Positions 4,117 through 35,777 of a DNA stretch of 64,000 bases are shown here, piece after piece. This DNA comes from Parcubacteria group bacterium Gr01-1014_20. GTDB lineage: Bacteria > Patescibacteriota > Minisyncoccia > UBA6257 > 2-01-FULL-56-20. The notes beneath the pieces are model-generated. The model was not told where the DNA came from. It made no database searches and was given only the letters and a program-made list of their open reading frames with translations. A program made the translations under genes and the position numbers. The first letter of the stretch is position 1; each line of letters begins with the position of its first letter. The stretch spans positions 10,930 through 74,929 of the forward strand of contig VMFW01000006.1 of assembly GCA_007376265.1 (NCBI GenBank), given 5' to 3'.

Positions 4117-5625
4117 TTAAGCTTTGTGCCTCAATATTTTGCCAGAACGGAGGCCGGTGTATTCTCCATTTTCGACGGCTACTTGACCGTTTACGATTAC
4201 AAAGTTAACTCGATTGTCACGAAATCCCACCAGGTCCGCAAAGTAACCCTCTTTTACCACTCCCCTTCCAGCGAGGCCAAGTTTTTTCGCGGGAGTCGAA
4301 GTTATTTTTCGGATAGCAGTTTCCAGATCTAGGATATTTTCCTCCTCCACCAGAGATAGGAATTTTGGAAAGGCGGAGACGGCTCGATCTGGTTTCATAG
4401 TTTTGATTCGGTTATTCGGAGCAATACTCGCTGCGTTTGAGACCACTAATGACCGATTGCTTTTCACGGCTTTTTTCAAGAGGTCACGGTTTATATTTTG
4501 GTAATAAATTGTGGCTTGGAGTTTAGTTGAGATCATTAGTTTCAGTAGTGATTCCTTGTAACTTTTAAGCGAATAAAGTTTTTTGATTTCGTTTAGGGTG
4601 TAACCTACCAACGAATCATTTCCAGGAGCTTGGGCAACTAGAAAATCTGACGGTTTAACTTCCGGCAGGTCCTTTAAGATTTTTGATCTCAGCCATTCGT
4701 CCTCTAGGCTCAAATTCATGACCTTCAGATTGTCTTTTTGCGCCCAGCTCGGAAGGAAGGTGTAGAGTTTGAGGATTCTCTTGTTGGATGGGTAAACGCT
4801 AAAGTGAAAATCAATTTTTTCATCCAGAGCATTTATGTTTTCCAGAGTTTTTTCGTAAGCGGTTTCATAGTTTTCGGTTGGGATAAGATGGCTCACGATT
4901 GTTTTGACCCCCGTTTCTTTGGAGAGTTTTATGGTTTCCTCCATGGATTCGAGGAGGCCATCGCTATCATTCCGCAGGTGGGTGGAATAGATGCCGTCCA
5001 GATTTTTTACGACGGTGGCCAGCGCTTTAATTTCGGCGTATGGGGTATCTTTGGTTTGGGCGTAGCCAAGACCCGTTGAAAGGCCAAAGCCGCCTTCTTG
5101 AAGCGCTCGTTTTAGCGTTTCTCCAAAAACATTAAGTTCGTTTTTTGTGAGAGTTCTCGGGGGTTTGCCGATGAGCGCTTCACGGATGGTACTGTGTCCA
5201 ATCAGGGTGCCAAAGTTTACCCCTAACGGTTTTTTGTCCATCAGGCGGAGAAACTCGTTAACCGAATGCCAGTCAACGTTGATCTCTCTCGTGTCTGTCC
5301 ATTCCTCGACGGATTCAAGACTGCCGTAGATTAGGGGGGCAAGAGAAGCGCCGCATAGACCACCGATGATCGTGGTTATCCCCTGTTTTAGGAAGTCGAC
5401 TTGGCTAGGGTTAGAGAAAAGACTTAGGTAGTGGTCAGACTCGGTATGGAGATCGATGAAGCCAGCGGAGAGATAGGCTCCCTGTCCGTCTATGATTTTG
5501 TCAGCGGTTTTTCCTGGAAAGCGACCGAGAGCAGTAATTTTATCACCGCTTACGAAGACATCGAGTTTGTCAGGGAGTTTTTGGTCGAAACCGACGATTT
5601 GAACGTTTTTTATTAAAAGAGTCAT
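4117..5625 (-). CDS. amidohydrolase-superfamily protein, N-acyl-D-amino-acid deacylase (D-aminoacylase)-like
   Basis: N-terminal IKNVQIVGFD...IDGQGAYLSAGFIDLHTESDHYL matches the metal-dependent amidohydrolase/D-aminoacylase signature. 502 aa. Confidence 0.55.
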   Translation of the reverse strand: MTLLIKNVQIVGFDQKLPDKLDVFVSGDKITALGRFPGKTADKIIDGQGAYLSAGFIDLHTESDHYLSLFSNPSQVDFLKQGITTIIGGLCGASLAPLIYGSLESVEEWTDTREINVDWHSVNEFLRLMDKKPLGVNFGTLIGHSTIREALIGKPPRTLTKNELNVFGETLKRALQEGGFGLSTGLGYAQTKDTPYAEIKALATVVKNLDGIYSTHLRNDSDGLLESMEETIKLSKETGVKTIVSHLIPTENYETAYEKTLENINALDEKIDFHFSVYPSNKRILKLYTFLPSWAQKDNLKVMNLSLEDEWLRSKILKDLPEVKPSDFLVAQAPGNDSLVGYTLNEIKKLYSLKSYKESLLKLMISTKLQATIYYQNINRDLLKKAVKSNRSLVVSNAASIAPNNRIKTMKPDRAVSAFPKFLSLVEEENILDLETAIRKITSTPAKKLGLAGRGVVKEGYFADLVGFRDNRVNFVIVNGQVAVENGEYTGLRSGKILRHKA

Positions 5626-5720
5626 GAATCATGAAGCATGAAACACATGTAAGTCTACGTTAATTATAGAACATTGGTTGATAAATAATAATGGCCGTTT
5701 CGAGTGAAACGGCCACAAAA

Positions 5721-6014
5721 CTACACTTTTGGTTTTAGGGATTGGTGGATACCTAGTCCAAGGAGTCCTAAGCCTCCTGATGAGAGAAGTCCGCCTAGGA
5801 TGATATTCAAAAGCGGGGGTTTTGCCGATAAAAACGGCGCGAGGCTTGTGATCAAGCCCAATAAAGCCAGAACAGCTCCGGTCAGCATAGTGTCCAGGTT
5901 ATCGGTTTGGACTGCCCGGCCTTTTTTTAGAAACGCGATCAGGAGTTTAAGGATGAGTAGGGAGCTAAGCGCGATGAGGGTCAACTTTAAAGCGCTGTCG
6001 GTGGTTTCTAACAT
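5721..6014 (-). CDS. small Gly/Leu-rich membrane protein, hypothetical
   Basis: 97 aa. GGGGGA RBS 6 nt upstream of the ATG. A 9-bp hairpin with a U-rich tail (5693-5714) sits immediately downstream. The competing plus-strand ORF 5704-6051 has no such signals and a non-protein-like composition. Confidence 0.5.
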
Positions 6015-9023: not shown

Positions 9024-10806
9024 TTTGGTGTCTATGGTGTTCAAGGAGGTTTTTTTCAATCGGAGTTTCCTCCTTTTTCTCGTCTGCGGCTCCCATGAGG
9101 GACTCACTGATCGAGCTTCTCAAATCGTCAAGATCAATTTCTATTTTGGGTGGGCGAGGCAATTCTCTGGGTTTTGGGGGGAGGATTGGTGCGGGTAGTA
9201 GATGTTCCCTCTTTTGAAAGGCCTGTGGAGTTGTAGCTACTTCTTTTGGTTTGAGAACATTGATTCGGGGCTCCTCGGAGGCGGGTCGGTTTTCTGGTTT
9301 GGGAAGTGGTTTAACTTCCGGTTTTGTTTCTACTCGGGTTTGGGGGGTGGTGGGTTTGGGCCAGGATGGAACGGGCCAGTTCGGGCCCACTGGTTTTTGA
9401 GTTTTCTCTTGATATTTAGGCTCCAATCCCTTAGTCGGTTTTGGCTTTAGAATTTCTGAGAGAGATTGTTCGTCGCGCCGGCTAATTTTTTCGTCAACGG
9501 TTTGCATGTCGGCATTCCATTCGGCGCTGATTCTTTCCTCAACTATTTTCCGAGGAGTGCCATATTTTTTTTGCGAATTTTCTATAATAACATCTCGGTA
9601 GGAAATGAGGGGTTGTCTCGGCGGCGGAATAGTTTCGGCCGAAAAAGGTCGTTGGGCCATGCCATCAATCATTAACTTAAGATAAACATTGTATTTGGCT
9701 AGGTTGACCAGATCGTTTTGAACAAATTCCGGCATAAATTCTTTTTCTAAGAACTCTCCGTCAACGGCGCCAACTCGGAAGGTGATCAAGGTGCCAACGT
9801 TACCAAAGATGGCGTCGCGGACGTGGGTATTTTCGCCACCATCTAACTGGCCTATGTACTGGTGGGCCAGAGTGAGACTCAAGTGATATTTTCTAGCTTC
9901 GGACAATATATTGGCAAATGAGTCCGTAGCGAAGTTTTGAAACTCATCTACGTATAGGAAGAAATCGCGGCGCTTTTCTTCGGGCACGTCTACTCGAGAC
10001 ATAGCAGCTAGTTGGAGGCGGGTGATGATCATGGCTCCCAAAAGAGCGGAGTTGTCCTCACCCATACGGCCCTTCGATAGATTTACGACGAGGATTTTCC
10101 CCTCATCCATTATTTTTCTCATTTTTAACACTGAACTCGATTGACCAAGAATATTTCTAATGAGCGGATTGGAAACGAATTGGCCGACTTTGTTTTGGAT
10201 GGCGGCTAAGGCTTCGGTTTCGAAACGTTGATTGTAGCGGGCAAATTCTTCCGCCCAAAAGGCTTTAATGACAGGATCTTTAAGGCCGGAAACTATTTTT
10301 TTTCGATATTCTGGCTGTGAAAACATACGCATAATTCCAAGCAGGGTAGAGTTGGGGTATTCGAGAAGCGCCAGGAGGGTGTTGTTTAAAATGTATTCCA
10401 TTCTGGCAGACCAGGCGTCGGGCCAGATTTTTTTAAAAACACCCATAATGCCTGAAGCTACCAGGTGGCGAAACTCATTGCCAACTTGTTCGAGCGGATT
10501 GAAAGCGATCGGAAACTCGAGGTCAGCCGGGTTCACGTAAATCACGTCGTTCACCCTTTCTTCGGGGACAAAATCCAGAACCCTTTCAGCAAATTCACCG
10601 TGAGGATCAACAACACCCACTCCCCTCCCCGCGCGAATGTCATCGATGGCCATATTTTCAAGTAAGGTTGATTTCCCGGAGCCGGTTTTTCCAACGACAT
10701 AAATATGGCGGCGGCGATCGTCGAGTTTAATGCCGAAAACCTTTTTGGAGCTCCTGAAATTGGCTTGACCCAATATGGTTAATTCTTCCTGATCTTTTTT
10801 ATTCAT
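8983..10806 (-). CDS. FtsK/HerA/TraD(VirD4)-superfamily P-loop ATPase with a Pro/Lys-rich low-complexity C-terminal tail
   Basis: Walker [12 protein letters not shown] near residue 40, a DPHGE motif, and Walker [12 protein letters not shown]. The C-terminal roughly 170 aa are a Pro-rich, disordered-looking tail. There is an 8-bp overlap with the upstream membrane-protein gene. Confidence 0.7.
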
Positions 10807-13355: not shown

Positions 13356-14258
13356 TTAGGCTGACTTTTTCAGATTTTGCCAAATTAAGAGGAGGGGGCT
13401 TGCAACGAATATCGAAGAGTAGGCTCCGGTAGTAACTCCAACCAGAAGGGTGAGAATGAAGTATTTGAGGGTGATGGGACCGAAAAAGAAAAGAGCTAAA
13501 AGGACCAGGATGAGGGTTAGAGAGGTATTAATTGATCTTGCAACGGTTTGGTTGACGCTAGTGTTAATAATTTCCGCAAAGTCTGATTTGCCACGGCTGT
13601 GGAAAAGATTTTCTCGAATTCGGTCGAAGATGACGATTGTGTCGTGGACAGAGAAACCCATGACGACCAAAAGAGCGACCACGAAATTAGAATCAATTTC
13701 GACTTTGCCAAGATAGCCTAGGTAGGCTAAGAGTCCAGCTGGAATCACAATGTCGTGGAAAAGAGTGAGGAGGGTGACCCAGCCGTATTTCCAGGAACTT
13801 ATCGGTCGAGAGGTTTTTCGGAAAGCGAAGGCGATGAAAAGTGAGATTCCCACGAGGACCAGACCGATCGCGATCATTGCGTTCTTTCTTAGTTTTTCAC
13901 CAACGGAGGGCCCGATGGATTCGAAACTTAACTCTTTGGCGGTGGGATATTTACTGAGTACCAGTTTTAGGAATTCCTGGTGTTCAGCTTCACTCGCGAC
14001 TCCGAAGCGCGCGATGAAAATGTTTTCAGATTGGTTATAACTTAGACGAACTTCGCCGACATTTTTTATGTTTTCTTTGAGGAAATCGTCTATTTCTTTG
14101 AAGCTTTGCCTTTCTTCAGAGATTTTTAACTGCCAGAGGGTTCCACCTTTAAAATCTATTCCCTGATGGAAGCCGAAAGCGACTATCGAGACTATTGATA
14201 GAAGAGTGAGGATCAGAGAAAACAATAGAAATATTTTTTTGTGACCGATGATGTTCAT
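13356..14258 (-). CDS. secF: protein translocase subunit SecF
   Basis: 300 aa with six TM helices and SecF-type conserved blocks (…DFKGGT…, …GFSVHDTIVIFDRIREN…). Confidence 0.85.
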   Translation of the reverse strand: MNIIGHKKIFLLFSLILTLLSIVSIVAFGFHQGIDFKGGTLWQLKISEERQSFKEIDDFLKENIKNVGEVRLSYNQSENIFIARFGVASEAEHQEFLKLVLSKYPTAKELSFESIGPSVGEKLRKNAMIAIGLVLVGISLFIAFAFRKTSRPISSWKYGWVTLLTLFHDIVIPAGLLAYLGYLGKVEIDSNFVVALLVVMGFSVHDTIVIFDRIRENLFHSRGKSDFAEIINTSVNQTVARSINTSLTLILVLLALFFFGPITLKYFILTLLVGVTTGAYSSIFVASPLLLIWQNLKKSA

Positions 14259-14306: not shown

Positions 14307-15548
14307 TTAATTTTTTGGTTGGTTTTTGGCGAAGACTTTTAGCAGGAGCCTCGTGGTTGTGATGGCTGAAAACATGCTGACTAGAACTCCAATTAAAAGA
14401 GTTAGAGCAAAACCCTTGATGAAGCTCGAGGTAAAGAAATAAAGAATAACGGCCGTAATGATGGTGGAAATATTGGAGTCTCGAATGGATGGCCAGGCTC
14501 TTTTGAAACCTTCTTCGATGGCGGACATCCTGGACAAGCCTTTTTTAGTTTCTTCTTTTACTCTTTCGAAAATCAGAATGTTAGCGTCAACGGCCATGCC
14601 AATCGTAAGTATAAAGCCAGCTAAACCCGCCAAAGTCATAGTGACACCGATAAGCTTGAAAAGTCCTAGGGTGAGGATCGAGTAGATAATAAGGGCCACA
14701 ACGGCAAAGACACCAAAAAACTGGTAGTAGATCAGCATAAAAAGCATGACAACGAGCGTGCCGATGGCGCCAGCGGTTAAGGCTTTTTGGAGCGAATCAT
14801 TCCCGAGGCCGGGGCTCACGGTTTGCTGGTTGATGAGGACAATCGGAGCGGGCAGAGCGCCAGCGTTAAATCGTTCCACCAGGGTTCTAGCTTCGGTGAC
14901 GGTGAAGCGACCCGTGATAACGGCTTGGCCCCCAGTGATTTTCTGCTGAACGACTGGCGCTTCGATTAAACCTTCATCTAAGAATATCGCTATGGGTTTC
15001 CCAATATTTTTTTCCGTCAGGTTTTCGAATATTTTGGAGCCTTCATCGTTGAAACTGATAGAAACTTGCGGGGCGCCGGTTGTTTGGTCAAAGGTGAGCT
15101 GGGCGCTTGTAATGTACTGGCCGGTCAGAGGCGTTTCGGGAGTTACAAAGGTGGTGCTCGAACCGTTTTCGACTACCTCTCTAAAATCCAAAAGGGGCGT
15201 TTCTCCGATAAGACGAATGGCTTGGTTGATGTCGGTGATGCCGGCGATTTCGACGATGAGGTTCGTTTTGTTTCCAGACTCAGCCGTAAACACCTGCGGC
15301 TCGCTAACACCGAAAAGATTGACCCGTCTTTCAATTACATCGCGCAGACCGTTCACAACTGAACTTTGGTCGCCGCTTGGAACTTTGGTTAAATCAATTT
15401 CATAGATGAGGTGGCTGCCGCCGACCAGATCTAAGCCGAGTCGCCAAGGTCGGGTTTTCAACCCAAAGGCTCCCGGATAAACAAAAAAACCGGCGATAAT
15501 GGTCGCGACAAAAATAAAAGACAGAACAAGTCCTGGATACTTTCGCAT
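14307..15548 (-). CDS. secD: protein translocase subunit SecD
   Basis: 413 aa with N-terminal LGLDLVGGSHLIYE and C-terminal GLAGFILTIGMAVDANILIFERVKEE, both characteristic of SecD. Immediately upstream of secF. Confidence 0.85.
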   Translation of the reverse strand: MRKYPGLVLSFIFVATIIAGFFVYPGAFGLKTRPWRLGLDLVGGSHLIYEIDLTKVPSGDQSSVVNGLRDVIERRVNLFGVSEPQVFTAESGNKTNLIVEIAGITDINQAIRLIGETPLLDFREVVENGSSTTFVTPETPLTGQYITSAQLTFDQTTGAPQVSISFNDEGSKIFENLTEKNIGKPIAIFLDEGLIEAPVVQQKITGGQAVITGRFTVTEARTLVERFNAGALPAPIVLINQQTVSPGLGNDSLQKALTAGAIGTLVVMLFMLIYYQFFGVFAVVALIIYSILTLGLFKLIGVTMTLAGLAGFILTIGMAVDANILIFERVKEETKKGLSRMSAIEEGFKRAWPSIRDSNISTIITAVILYFFTSSFIKGFALTLLIGVLVSMFSAITTTRLLLKVFAKNQPKN

Positions 15549-16103: not shown

Positions 16104-16712
16104 ATGAGTGATTTAGTTTTATCCAGGGGAAGAGCACTAGTGGTGGTGGCTCATCCGGATGATGAGACGATTTGGATGGGTGGGACGATTTTAGCTAATC
16201 CACAGACTAAATGGACGATATTTTCTTTGTGTCGTGCGGATGACAAAGATCGGGCGCCGAAGTTCCGCAAGGTGTGTAAGTTTTTGGAAGTGCGAGCGAT
16301 CATAACGGACTTGGACGACGAAGAAAAATTGAATTTGCGTGAGAGCCTGCCGGAGATTCGCCAACGAATTCGAAAAGTGGTTGGCTCCGCGCGATTTGAT
16401 TACGTCTTTACGCACGGCTATAATGGGGAATACGGACATCCGCGGCATCGAGGAGTGAGTCGAGTAGTAAGGGAGATGGTGCGAAGCGGAGAGATCAAGA
16501 CAAAACAACTTTTGAACTTCAGTTACGAATTTGATGAGCGGAGAAATCTGTGCCGACCAAAAAAGGCGGATATTTTTTTAAAACTATCCCTCGCTCTGTT
16601 TAAGAAGAAACAGAAAGTGATTAACGAGGTTTATGGGTTTCGGAAGTCAACGTTTGAGTTCAAAACCCTAACTAAAATGGAATATTTTAGAACGATTAAG
16701 CAACGAGTATGA
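16104..16712 (+). CDS. LmbE/PIG-L family N-acetylglucosaminyl deacetylase
   Basis: ALVVVAHPDDETIWMGGTI is the PIG-L signature. A His (HxxH-like) motif follows downstream. 202 aa. Confidence 0.8.
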   Translation: MSDLVLSRGRALVVVAHPDDETIWMGGTILANPQTKWTIFSLCRADDKDRAPKFRKVCKFLEVRAIITDLDDEEKLNLRESLPEIRQRIRKVVGSARFDYVFTHGYNGEYGHPRHRGVSRVVREMVRSGEIKTKQLLNFSYEFDERRNLCRPKKADIFLKLSLALFKKKQKVINEVYGFRKSTFEFKTLTKMEYFRTIKQRV

Positions 16713-17851
16713 GATCTGTCATTATGTACGCCTATCCGCCGGAGCCGGATGGGCTAAGTCAGCAAGGAGATTTGCTTCATCGTGGGATGAGGGAAAATGG
16801 CGAGGAGATTTGGCCGGTTCATTTATCGAGCGAATTTCAGAAGGAATTTTTGTATAAGTTTTATAAACCGGACGTGGCGATTGGGGTGGGTTTTTGGGGC
16901 CACGCGCAGGACATTATTTTACACCCGCAGAAGTACGGCGTTCAGCCAGTGCCGTGGTTACTTTCCGACGGGTGGGTGGCGAATTACCATCAACTTATTT
17001 CGGAGCTGCCATTGGTTTTCACGACGAGCGACTGGGTGCGAAAAACTTTTGAACGGGACGGAGTGGATACGAAAAATTTCCAGACGCTTTATATTGGTTT
17101 GGATACGGAGCTTTTCAAGCCCATTCCTCGCGATGATGCGAGGATTTTAAAAATTAAGGAAATGCTTGGGATTAAGCCCGATGAGGTGGTGATCATGACG
17201 GCGGGAGGAGACGTGACTTCTAAGGGGGCGCAAGAAGTTTTCAAAGCACTGAAAAAGGTGGATCAGGAATTTCAGAACTGGAAATATGTTTGTAAGGTTT
17301 GGGGGGGTGAGAGCGCGGATGATCATTACGACGATGAGATGGTTTTGCTTGACGAGTTGGGTCCGTCGAAGGATAAGGTGATTTATCTTGAAGGATCGTT
17401 GTCGCGAGAATTTATGCCCCTTTTACTCAACGCCTGCGATATTTATGCGGCACCGTCCCGATTGGAGGGTTTTGGGATGATTCAGGTAGAAGCGCAAGCG
17501 TGTGGGAAGCCAGTGATTTCGATTGACGAGATGGGACCGAAGGAGACGATCTTGAATGGCGAGACGGGGTTTTTGGCTAGAGTGGCAACAACCGTGGACC
17601 TCACTTCTGAATGGGCGTACGTTGGCATGGGATTTGAGGAAGATCACCGGATTGAGTTTGATAAGCCAAAGACCTTTGCTTATAGGGCGGATGAAAATGA
17701 CATTGCGGAATTTTTGCTGAAGCTTCTAAAAGACCCGGATTTGCGAGCGAAGATGGGCGCTAGAGCGCGAGAACATGTGGTAGGAAAATTTGAGTATCGT
17801 AAAATTGCCAAACAAATGGCGGACCTGATTAAAGCGAAGTTTAATATTTAA
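16709..17851 (+). CDS. GT4-family glycosyltransferase (retaining, GT-B fold)
   Basis: C-terminal domain AAPSRLEGFGMIQVEAQACGKPVIS…ETG carries the GT4 E-x7-E motif. There is a 4-bp overlap with the upstream deacetylase gene. Confidence 0.8.
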   Translation: MRSVIMYAYPPEPDGLSQQGDLLHRGMRENGEEIWPVHLSSEFQKEFLYKFYKPDVAIGVGFWGHAQDIILHPQKYGVQPVPWLLSDGWVANYHQLISELPLVFTTSDWVRKTFERDGVDTKNFQTLYIGLDTELFKPIPRDDARILKIKEMLGIKPDEVVIMTAGGDVTSKGAQEVFKALKKVDQEFQNWKYVCKVWGGESADDHYDDEMVLLDELGPSKDKVIYLEGSLSREFMPLLLNACDIYAAPSRLEGFGMIQVEAQACGKPVISIDEMGPKETILNGETGFLARVATTVDLTSEWAYVGMGFEEDHRIEFDKPKTFAYRADENDIAEFLLKLLKDPDLRAKMGARAREHVVGKFEYRKIAKQMADLIKAKFNI

Positions 17852-25814: not shown

Positions 25815-25840
25815 ACAGCCTCTTTGGGGCTGTTTTTATT
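25815..25840 (+). terminator. intrinsic terminator
   Basis: ACAGCC-tctttgg-GGCTGT followed by TTTTTATT. Confidence 0.5.
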
Positions 25841-25908
25841 GAATTTTTTTGGGTGGAATGGTATTATTTTTCACTAGTTAGAGTGGATTTATAGTTCCGA
25901 TGCTCTGT

Positions 25909-25944
25909 GCGCCCATAGCTCAGTCCGGTAGAGCAGCTCCCTTT
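25909..25944 (+). pseudogene. orphan 5' half of a tRNA-Lys-like gene (acceptor strand through anticodon-loop CTTT)
   Basis: GCGCCCA-TA-GCTC-AGTCCGGTA-GAGC-A-GCTCC-CTTT, then the sequence diverges. No 3' half follows directly. The acceptor strand pairs perfectly with the 3' fragment at 26129-26135. Confidence 0.6.
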
Positions 25945-25988
25945 ACCAAGGTTGAGTTTGGCGATTGGTTCTCTCGACAAAAATAAAT

Positions 25989-26061
25989 GCCTCCTTAGCT
26001 CAGTTGGTAGAGCAGCTCCCTTTTAAGGAGATGGTCGCAGGTTCGATTCCTGCAGGAGGCA
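25989..26061 (+). tRNA. tRNA-Lys (anticodon TTT)
   Basis: 73 nt. Acceptor GCCTCCT/AGGAGGC is a perfect 7-bp pair. D-arm GCTC-AGTTGGT-AGAGC, anticodon loop CTTTTAA, T-arm GCAGG-TTCGATT-CCTGC, discriminator A. No encoded CCA. Confidence 0.85.
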
Positions 26062-26096
26062 CACAAAAGGCATTACTTTTGTCTCGTTGCCAATCG

Positions 26097-26136
26097 TAAG
26101 GAGATGGTCCTAGGTGTTCAAATCCTAGTGGGCGCA
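26097..26136 (+). pseudogene. orphan 3' half of the same tRNA-Lys-like gene (anticodon loop to discriminator)
   Basis: TAAGGAGATGGTC is identical to the intact tRNA-Lys anticodon/variable region, followed by CTAGG-TGTTCAAAT-CCTAG-TGGGCGC-A. TGGGCGC is the exact complement of the GCGCCCA acceptor strand at 25909. Confidence 0.6.
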
Positions 26137-26170
26137 CAGAGTACCGAGAGCTCAAAGTAGCTTCCTTTTT

Positions 26171-26199
26171 CCACCAGAGGTGGATCCGTCTCGGGCGGA
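26171..26199 (+). repeat. two-hairpin motif, copy 1 (CCACC-aga-GGTGG AT CCGTC-tcg-GGCGG A)
   Basis: Seen directly in the sequence. A second copy with compensatory changes is at 35676-35704. Confidence 0.7.
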
Positions 26200-26237
26200 C
26201 AAATCCTAGTGAGGGTACAATAAGCAATAAGATCCAG

Positions 26238-27349: not shown

Positions 27350-28372
27350 TTATAGTTTGACAGTTTCTTTCATGCGATTTTCTCCGGCCATATGTAAGAA
27401 GTTGATGCCAAGGAGCAGTTGCATCACGGTGAAAGCCAAGAAAGACGCAACAAAGGAAACCAGGATGCCAACGCCCTTGGCGATGAGGAAGAAAATTAAG
27501 AGCCATCCGGCCAAAAACCAATTACCCATGCTGTTTTTCCATTTCTCGAGAGTGGCTATCATGAGTTTATAAAAAATTTCGTTGGTTGGGTTTTCACCAC
27601 TTATCGCAGTCTGAAAGCGATTGCCCAGTTCCTTGATGAATTGACGGGCTTCGTTTTCAATGGAGCTTTCCTTGTCCTTGGGAGTGAGAGCTTTAAATTC
27701 CTCGAGGTTCTCCAGCTTGAAAACGGCAATATCTCTGGCCAGTTTTTCGATGGTTGAGTTAACATCAACTTCTGGATAGAGACGCTTAGTTATGCCGGAG
27801 CTCCAGGCGTAAACCGTCTGAAAGCCTTCGGGGGTGACGAATATATTTTGAATGTTGATATTGTCCACGTTTACTTTTGGGAGGTATAGGATAACGAACA
27901 TGATGGCGAGTGCCGTAGCCATACTACTGATTTTTAAGCGCGAAGTTTTGTAAAATTTGATCTCTAAGCTGTTTGAGAGAAATTGACGACTGGTAATTTC
28001 GCCGATGGTTGATAAGAGAAGCATGAGTCCGCCAGTGACGAAAAGGACTCCATCGGCTCGATCATAGAAAAAAGAGAGGAGCGCGATTACTTCTAAAACC
28101 ATGATCAGGGACCGACGTTGAAGGCTTGAGACAGCAAAAACTTCGACGGTGGTTAAAATTAAGAAAAGTAAAAGGCTAGCCGCGAGGATTCCGAAGCGGA
28201 CGTTTCCAAGCAGGTAGGTTTTGTAGGAAAAACTTAAGAGAAGGGCCGAGGCGACCGTCAGAATATCCAGGACCAGTCCTTTATAAAAGCCGGGTGGACG
28301 AACAGGTGACGTGTCTAGCGGCACCTGTTTCATGAAGTTTTGTTGCTGAAATTGACCGTTCATAAGGCTCAA
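27350..28372 (-). CDS. polytopic membrane protein, hypothetical (between dnaK and dnaJ)
   Basis: 340 aa with at least 6 predicted TM helices and no recognisable motif. Confidence 0.45.
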
Positions 28373-35655: not shown

Positions 35656-35675
35656 ATCATGAATCGTGGATCTTT

Positions 35676-35704
35676 CCTCCGGAGGAGGATCCGCCTCGGG
35701 CGGA
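35676..35704 (+). repeat. two-hairpin motif, copy 2 (CCTCC-gga-GGAGG AT CCGCC-tcg-GGCGG A)
   Basis: Same architecture as copy 1 at 26171-26199. Both stems carry compensatory substitutions (CCACC/GGTGG versus CCTCC/GGAGG; CCGTC/GGCGG versus CCGCC/GGCGG). Confidence 0.7.
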
Positions 35705-35777
35705 GAATCTTGAAATATGGAGCTTGAAACACGGTTTTTGCTTGACACTTAGTGCTCGATACAGGAAACTTCTAGGG

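Follow-up and report, generated by a model that had tools for sequence, protein, structure and literature searches.

Within a 64-kb stretch of the genome of 'Parcubacteria group bacterium Gr01-1014_20', a member of the Candidate Phyla Radiation (CPR), we observed a resident tRNA-Lys gene that is interrupted in its anticodon loop by an insert of 152 nt, and this insert in turn contains a second, complete tRNA-Lys(UUU). The whole stretch is called the window here, and statements on this genome refer to these 64 kb; judged by DnaJ, its nearest relatives are found in Candidatus Liptonbacteria (~65-70% identity). The original prediction, made from the letters alone, had described such a split gene, and all of its features were seen again, in agreement with ARAGORN, with Rfam and with the uninterrupted gene of a relative (locus L069); even its fallback wording, a tRNA gene nested within a tRNA gene, is literally what is there. 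The parts of the nest are as follows, the insert being termed a cassette:

25909-25944, plus strand: 5' half of the outer tRNA-Lys gene (resident, 'A-type'), with acceptor strand GCGCCCA, D-arm, anticodon stem and C32-U35 (CTTT)
25945-26096, plus strand: insert of 152 nt between the two outer halves
25945-25988, plus strand: left arm of the cassette (s1), with a linker at 25945
25946-25961, plus strand: variable hairpin of s1 (CCAAGG..TTTGG)
25962-25968, plus strand: 5' strand of helix I (CGATTGG)
25969-25975, plus strand: left loop motif TTCTCTC (family consensus TTCGCTC)
within 25976-25988, plus strand: 5' strand of helix II (ACAAAA at 25977-25982)
25989-26061, plus strand: inner, intact tRNA-Lys(UUU), 'B-type', with acceptor strands GCCTCCT/AGGAGGC, found by ARAGORN and Rfam
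26062-26096, plus strand: right arm of the cassette (s2), following the inner tRNA
26077-26082, plus strand: 3' strand of helix II (TTTTGT)
26083-26089, plus strand: right loop motif CTCGTTG (family consensus CTCGCTG)
26090-26096, plus strand: 3' strand of helix I (CCAATCG)
26097-26136, plus strand: 3' half of the outer tRNA-Lys gene, with TAAGGAGATGGTC, U36-A38, anticodon stem, variable loop, T-arm, acceptor strand TGGGCGC and discriminator A

The acceptor strands of the outer halves (GCGCCCA and TGGGCGC) are complementary without a mismatch and the anticodon arm of the split gene equals that of the inner gene, both of which had been anticipated. The T-arm ascribed to the 3' half is present too, but it is not a normal one, its loop comprising 9 nt with an extra TG near 26115-26116. 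A check with ARAGORN had been proposed: the inner gene is called at 25989-26062 (Rfam tRNA, 72.9 bits, E 5.5e-16), and the outer halves, when joined in silico, are reported as tRNA-Lys(ttt) with the 9-nt T-loop, but the intron mode of the program gave no call for the outer gene at the window locus.

A search for an uninterrupted version in related genomes, likewise suggested beforehand, led to the empty site in L069, where a whole tRNA-Lys stands in the same dnaJ-tRNA-GH130-glycosyltransferase synteny as in the window. The joined halves correspond to this gene at 73 of 74 positions plus one 2-nt indel, which excludes a chance resemblance; the 5' half differs from it at 1 position, and the TG in the T-loop was gained in the window relative to L069. 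The point at which the halves meet lies exactly between CTTT and TAAGG, with 0 target bases duplicated and 0 lost. Since L069 holds the equal gene whole at the same locus, the comparison indicates that the resident gene in the window is split by a scarless insertion. The A-type gene is also found in L004, L070 and L072, and in relatives of the window tRNA-Lys adjoins dnaJ.

The flanks of the inner gene pair mutually (CGATTGG with CCAATCG, ACAAAA with TTTTGT), so that they do not form a random spacer, and the insert matches, base for base, the plan of the family described below. The inner B-type tRNA and the outer gene of the window are identical at 60 of 76 positions. Tandem duplication was considered as the origin of the window nest and rejected, given these 60/76 identities and the lack of any resemblance to s1 in what precedes the outer half. 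At 16379-16470 and 14743-14796 the window has two candidates for further copies, both of which lie in open reading frames (ORFs) and match by chance.

A family of nested tRNA-Lys genes

Metagenome contigs were scanned for a tRNA-Lys 5' half interrupted after U35, a design restricted to tRNA-Lys, and 21 of the 22 loci obtained are nests with one shared order of parts. On the left, an outer 5' half ending in CCCTTT is followed by 0-2 nt, a variable hairpin, a 7-nt helix I strand ending in GG, TTCGCTC and an A/T-rich helix II strand; on the right there follow the complete tRNA-Lys, the helix II complement, (C/T)TCGCTG, the helix I partner starting with CC and the outer 3' half (TAAGGAG...). Cassettes measure 150-190 nt across the family, a 'long' type having ~25 more paired nt in helix II, and the spacers, paired with the left arm, keep a constant size of 33-47 nt.

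RNAalifold, applied to 14 nests, recovers helices I and II together with the outer anticodon stem and the inner cloverleaf, and it places a GC clamp of 2 bp in the internal loop. In the non-tRNA helices 94.7% of the cells are paired, compared with 35-50% when the partners are slid by 1-3 columns; double-sided changes occur at 14 of 23 pairs, and the observed values of pairing and covariation were reached by none of 500 shuffles. Helix I exists in at least 10 distinct sequences, mostly with perfect pairing, and a scan of the related loci for the motifs plus complementarity returned 37 matches against 6.35 in shuffles. In minimum free energy (MFE) as well as in consensus structures, both junctions come to lie at a single three-way junction, from which helix I and the variable hairpin arise. 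Strand asymmetry in folding and in G-U counts was tried as a proof of RNA-level structure and provided none: neither strand folds better than the other, sense and antisense having 38 G-U pairs each, and the structure of the cassette is therefore not demonstrably confined to RNA.

With regard to which copy works, ARAGORN calls the inner tRNA in 16 of 16 nests but recognises a tRNA-Lys in the joined outer halves of the first layer in only 8 of 16; the remaining outer copies are truncated or contain insertions in the T-loop or variable loop, and the outer shells are increasingly degraded outward. Given the intact state of all inner genes, the only half of the outer ones that can be called and the 9-nt T-loop of the outer gene in the window, we infer that the inner tRNA is presumably the working gene and that the outer halves are decaying relics.

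Many of the nests comprise 2-5 layers. Two to four left-hand shells are present in L048, L049/L058, L060, L061 and L063; in L061, two layers have distinct helix I sequences whose partners pair in nested order, and the number of layers varies among related genomes (1 in L047, 4 in L061, both downstream of tRNA-Asp). At L055:13150-13901, at least 5 tandem 85-nt units of s2 plus 3' half stand against 2-3 units of 103 nt comprising 5' half plus s1, with mosaic point differences between them; the locus is cut at 13901, beyond which the array may continue. This nest appears to be subject to unequal crossing-over. The outer and inner halves are identical within each of L051, L054 and L065, yet different between these loci, and single-sided loss of 5' or 3' layers is frequent (L001, L005, L015, L058). 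Old outer 5' halves in L005:4100-4190, L061 (minus strand, 5700-5850), L049/L058 and L069:3715-3760 are invaded in the D-arm by a small GC-rich hairpin with the conserved loop GAAGCTTTAGCG or its complement GCTAAAGC, and in L050 (minus strand, 10590-10760) the truncated outer 3' half is followed, directly downstream, by a series of other palindromic repeats such as CCCAATTTGCCCAAGAACGAAGTGATTGG.

Nesting with complementary spacers is limited neither to tRNA-Lys nor to the anticodon loop, because L053:6905-7135 (minus strand) contains a complete tRNA-Ala(CGC) nested in a split tRNA-Ala. From 5' to 3' this nest consists of nt 1-18 of the outer tRNA, a hairpin, one 18-nt strand of a stem, another hairpin, the whole inner tRNA, an 18-mer perfectly complementary to the first strand, and nt 26-73 of the outer tRNA; the Lys-type motifs are absent, the split lies in the D-arm, and ~7 nt are gone from the outer copy.

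Several observations concern the mobility of the cassette. The B-type, characterised by helix I CGATTGG/CCAATCG and a short s1, of which AAAAATAAAT forms the end that adjoins the tRNA, occupies the innermost position against four host backgrounds, namely in the window (outer acceptor GCGCCCA), in L049/L058 (GCCCCTA), where it sits within two older shells of the long type, in L068 (GCCCTCA) and in the Liptonbacteria metagenome-assembled genome (MAG) L005. A B-type tRNA with s2 arm and orphan 3' half also occurs in the Saccharibacteria MAG L015, its tRNA being identical to that of the window at 72 of 73 positions, and an s2 of the window type ends the array in L001 and follows the B-type tRNA in L015. 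In a genome-contig collection that did not include the window's own genome, a scan for the 3' junction gave one true match (L015) and six chance matches. All tRNA-carrying copies have the orientation of the host gene and always follow CTTT, without duplication. Copies lacking a tRNA (hairpin, helix I, TTCG(C/T)TCG, short stem-loop, CTC(G/A)CTG, helix I') were seen at L054:794-870, L065:3305-3385 and L061:4815-4900 and 4950-5010; they lie in reverse orientation in T-loops of dead 3' halves (L054, L061, L065) and once in an s2 arm (L061), those in T-loops following GGAT.

Surroundings of the window nest

Further features adjoin the nest:

25839-25895, plus strand: two promoter-like sites, closely preceding the outer 5' half (TTGAAT-17-TATTAT with upstream TG; TTTTCA-16-TATAGT)
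26141-26219, plus strand: decayed tRNA-Lys-like remnant (low-confidence annotation), with a 5'-half-like part at 26141-26170, a double hairpin resembling repetitive extragenic palindromic (REP) elements at 26169-26200 and a 3'-end fragment at 26201-26219

A consensus scan placed promoter-like sites only upstream of the outer 5' half and none inside the insert; the left arm s1, considered as a promoter, was rejected on this ground. The 3'-end fragment, AAATCCTAGTGAGGGTACA, represents the 3' terminal 19 nt of a tRNA and agrees with 26120-26138 at ~16 of 19 positions. The downstream repeat noticed originally is thus real, but its second copy occupies 26201-26219, not 26200-26218, and its attribution to integration at a T-loop sublocation is not sustained: the segment 26141-26219, to which Rfam assigns no tRNA, looks like a badly decayed further copy of tRNA-Lys, the middle of which has been taken by the double-hairpin repeat. 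This repeat, TCC(A/T)CC..GG(T/A)GGATCCG(T/C)CTCGGGCGGA, forms the double hairpin at 26169-26200 and again at 35670-35706 and recurs partly at 16735-16750; in all, there are 5 matches to it versus 0.2 expected. Similar hairpins break decayed tRNA halves in L048 and L067, in the latter within the T-loop of a third-layer 3' half.

ORFs lying up to 10 kb from the window nest encode a glycosyltransferase, GH130, DnaJ, DnaK, GrpE and HrcA. Between dnaK and dnaJ, at 27350-28372 (minus strand), lies an ORF for a membrane-like protein of ~330-340 aa without a Pfam domain, whose position is kept in all relatives examined (L001, L004, L005, L069-L073). The orientation of tRNA-Lys to dnaJ flips among relatives, with the same strand in L001, L005, L069, L070, L072 and L073 and the opposite one in the window, L004 and L071. 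Several assemblies of relatives break at the tRNA-Lys locus; the contigs of L004, L006, L070, L071 and L072 stop inside it or less than ~150 nt from it.

Origin of the nests

We consider it probable that the insert is a complete copy of a small, protein-less, hairpin-structured and non-autonomous insertion cassette, which carries a replacement tRNA-Lys(UUU) and entered as DNA, with the help of an activity that acts in trans and recognises structure. Such a cassette would have entered the resident tRNA-Lys between nt 35 and 36 of the anticodon loop, in the orientation of the host gene, by means of an enzyme acting on folded single-stranded or cruciform DNA, and the insertion would be tolerated because the cassette supplies a replacement for the single-copy gene that it destroys. 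Transcription of the nest as a whole probably starts at the resident promoter. The inner tRNA would then be freed from a long leader/trailer stem by RNase P and an RNase III-like activity, and would do the decoding. The displaced outer halves would be functionless and decay, after which the cassette could no longer be lost, and the new inner tRNA would be a target again, giving the multi-layer 'onion' nests of the relatives. Unequal crossing-over and gene conversion between the direct repeats may add or remove shells and homogenise the halves, as in L055 and in L051, L054 and L065, respectively. The reverse-oriented copies and the lack of a strand bias favour DNA over RNA as the level of insertion; the uniform orientation of the tRNA-carrying copies would follow from their dependence on the host promoter, and the tRNA-less copies would be found in dead fragments because only there could they survive.

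A number of observations weigh against this explanation and should be stated clearly. Palindrome correction at the DNA level, and not selection, could keep the covariation of the helices. The right- and left-hand units of L055 are unequal in number, and the halves of L051, L054 and L065, identical within and different between loci, show that gene conversion or unequal crossing-over is also at work. The T-loop copies cut the loop at a register different from that between CTTT and TAA. In L053:11581-11654 it is the inner tRNA-Lys that has G33 (loop CGTTTAA), whereas the outer halves, if joined, would give a normal CTTTTAA; no other observation hints at a role for an outer copy. The cassette is not dispersed either: in a scan for motifs plus helix, the 64-kb window gave no copy other than that of the nest, and ~300 kb of related loci gave none outside nests. 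The original expectation that no integrase is nearby was borne out, and the search extends it, as no integrase, transposase or endonuclease was detected within 10 kb of the window nest or near ~25 related nests; the recurrent neighbours of 25 nests, according to ORF clustering and Pfam, are housekeeping genes (DnaJ, GNAT, zinc ribbon, NusB, RNase HII, SecDF, histidine kinase). Finally, IMG/VR, INPHARED and PLSDB yielded no cassette, whether free or borne by a plasmid or phage. Matches of the junction and arm patterns among IMG/VR viral contigs were only chance matches in coding DNA, and those of the whole nest to INPHARED phages and PLSDB plasmids in blastn were ordinary tRNA genes only.

Some of these points are equally what recombination alone would leave behind. 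One or a few ancient nestings would then have made the junction, and spread and layering would have proceeded without a dedicated enzyme, through homologous recombination of taken-up DNA, for which the conserved tRNA halves serve as homology arms, and, inside each genome, through unequal crossing-over or gene conversion among the direct repeats. The junction between T35 and T36 is identical in all cassette types, as if inherited with the DNA; the identical, mosaic units of 85-103 nt in L055 with their unequal numbers per side, the concerted evolution of outer and inner halves in L051, L054 and L065, the layers often lost on one side and the missing enzyme all fit such a history. We nevertheless hold it to be rather unlikely, as it leaves the first origin of a nest unexplained, although at least two origins (tRNA-Lys and, in L053, tRNA-Ala) have to be accounted for. 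The homology arms would be just ~36-40 nt long, with 13-17 nt identical between divergent hosts, and the outer halves in the window are fully of the resident type (73/74 to L069), whereas the inner gene is foreign. Neither the conserved loop motifs nor the reversed tRNA-less copies in T-loops are predicted by recombination.

Alternatively, the insert might be an intron at the RNA level, a new bacterial tRNA intron that contains a tRNA: the inner tRNA would be excised from the transcript, the flanks removed after CUUU and before UAA, the exons ligated, and both tRNAs would function, which implies a mature, ligated tRNA-Lys of the form GCGCCCA...TGGGCGCA. The scarless insertion would indeed let the exons form a perfect anticodon loop, both junctions come together at the three-way junction, every tRNA-carrying copy has host orientation, and half of the joined outer genes (8/16) still look intact, not to mention the G33 of the inner tRNA in L053, where the outer gene would be normal. 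Furthermore, the 5' exon ends with U, and the insert of the window has G as its last base, as do 11 of 15 other copies; this base is A, T or C in the rest. This resembles the bacterial group I introns, which interrupt anticodon loops of tRNAs (bioRxiv 10.1101/2020.01.27.920355) and share with the nests the U before the 5' junction and a G that is often the last base of the insert. Unlike them, however, the nests have only ~80-115 nt of non-tRNA sequence, their terminal G is not invariant, and no group I or group II core or other Rfam ribozyme was found at E<=10 in the nests of the window, L054 and L061, the matches being tRNA only.

The disrupted tRNA genes of archaea, which include bulge-helix-bulge introns, split and permuted tRNAs and the mobile introns of Thermoproteales, offer a second comparison; their inserts are removed by the splicing endonuclease at the bulge-helix-bulge, and their exons are functional (PMC4090602, PMC3978253, PMC4390854). 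Common to both are short structured inserts in loops that seemingly move between tRNA genes, and complementary flanks that bring the halves together. In the bacterial nests, by contrast, the insert holds a complete tRNA, and two 3-nt bulges with a 4-bp helix between them appear in neither the MFE nor the consensus structures. Nor do the joined exons look functional and under selection: half of the first-layer outer genes are broken, compared with no inner one in 16, the outer layers decay progressively, and the window has its 9-nt T-loop. Layer numbers that are unequal between sides (L055, L001), reverse-oriented copies, G-U pairs without a strand bias and a spare copy of the host gene, for which an intron has no need, argue in the same direction, and we regard an RNA-level intron as improbable.

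Integrase-encoding elements normally carry only the 3' part of a tRNA, rebuild the gene at attL and leave an identity block at each of the two junctions. In 2002, Williams reportedly described how integrases insert elements into tRNA genes, with the anticodon loop as one sublocation. The original prediction explained the split gene in this manner, and the classical form of the argument would have larger elements integrating at the anticodon loop and later being deleted, with attL/attR remnants and an element-borne tRNA left over. What stands of it is the precise split in the anticodon loop, a well-known target of integrases; displaced fragments as direct repeats and arrays of 3' fragments after serial events are further likenesses, and orphan 3' halves do pile up downstream in L001 and L015, a gene for an excisionase-like HTH_17 protein lying near the L001 array. 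What does not stand are the scars of a departed element. There is no duplicated core at the junctions, as CTTT, insert and TAA leave exactly one 7-nt loop, and the nest keeps an orphan 5' half that was not rebuilt: in the window, as in 21 other nests, it is an s1 arm that comes next, where a rebuilt gene would have its 3' half. The insert is a complete, covarying cassette, independent deletions could not produce spacers of constant 33-47 nt that pair with the left arm, and neither an integrase in ~25 loci nor anything related in IMG/VR, INPHARED and PLSDB was found.

Closest to the nests, however, are actinobacteriophages with tRNA-dependent lysogeny, whole phages that disrupt the host tRNA-Lys-TTT and bring their own copy (Guerrero-Bustamante & Hatfull 2024, PMC10865867), and their existence speaks for an integrase. 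Both cases have in common a split host tRNA-Lys and a replacement tRNA-Lys supplied by the insert. The phages possess a tyrosine integrase and a common core of ~10 bp in attP/attB (PMC10865867), whereas the insert in the window has 152 nt, no ORF and no repeated core, the replacement tRNA being essentially its whole cargo; viral contigs related to it were not found. Taken together, deleted integrase elements seem to us a quite improbable source of the nests. An assembly error in the form of a collapsed repeat had been named as a refutation, and contigs of several relatives ending inside or next to tRNA-Lys do suggest a locus that is hard to assemble; yet an artefact in the window, collapsed or chimeric, is excluded, its likelihood being negligible, because the same architecture recurs with compensatory base changes in more than 20 independent contigs (JGI, ENA, NCBI and Logan assemblies).

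A possible new class of tRNA-targeting elements

Among short mobile elements, miniature inverted-repeat transposable elements (MITEs), Rickettsia palindromic elements, REP and the palindrome-associated transposable elements (PATEs) derived from IS200/IS605 are dispersed in many copies, carry no tRNA and have terminal repeats or hairpins that are conserved in sequence. Derivatives of IS200/IS605 insert via folded single-stranded DNA without target duplication. The cassette resembles these elements in being short and protein-less, in forming a long imperfect hairpin with inverted-repeat ends and in having been inserted in genes. It differs from them in that helix I varies with compensation, only bases of the internal loop are conserved, and the copies are confined to tRNA nests; the window has no target-site duplication of the kind made by MITEs. 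PATEs insert 3' of a fixed tetra- or pentanucleotide without duplication and have subterminal hairpins at both ends; tRNA-carrying copies of the cassette always follow CTTT without duplication, those in T-loops follow GGAT, and the cassette has a hairpin at its left end only, which is variable in sequence.

The reading of the insert as a cassette can be taken further, although only tentatively and with more doubt than confidence on our part: the cassette may be an active member of a new class of mobile elements, 150-190 nt long, protein-less and rod-shaped, with a tRNA as cargo, homing without scars into a loop of the same tRNA gene by a structure-guided cut-and-join of single strands (DNA or RNA) through a not-yet-recognised enzyme, and holding its host by replacing an essential single-copy gene. 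If this were true and the reaction also took place on RNA, Bacteria would have their first case of tRNA splicing that depends on protein. Searches of the full-text literature, in which most subscription journals are not covered, turned up no account of nested tRNA genes in CPR bacteria. The closest known concept is tRNA-dependent lysogeny, and the cassette would belong with it as a tRNA-targeting insertion which compensates its own damage; that the mechanism itself is new has a substantial chance.

For annotation, the consequences are practical, as the nests break assemblies and mislead both tRNA annotation and the prediction of integration sites; the lineages of the cassette could in turn mark gene flow between CPR classes. 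The nests would represent the minimal form of a strategy of disrupting the host tRNA and bringing one's own, so far known only for phages with integrases, and they imply a scarless insertion mechanism, not previously known, that is aimed at tRNA loops. They would also provide a living bacterial example of how split, nested and intron-bearing tRNA genes can arise, which bears on the debate on the origin of tRNA introns and split tRNAs. In CPR bacteria themselves, the single-copy tRNA-Lys gene, and at least one tRNA-Ala gene, would have been repeatedly overwritten from inside by a tiny cassette with its own replacement, leaving onion-like shells of dead halves around the copy that presumably decodes.

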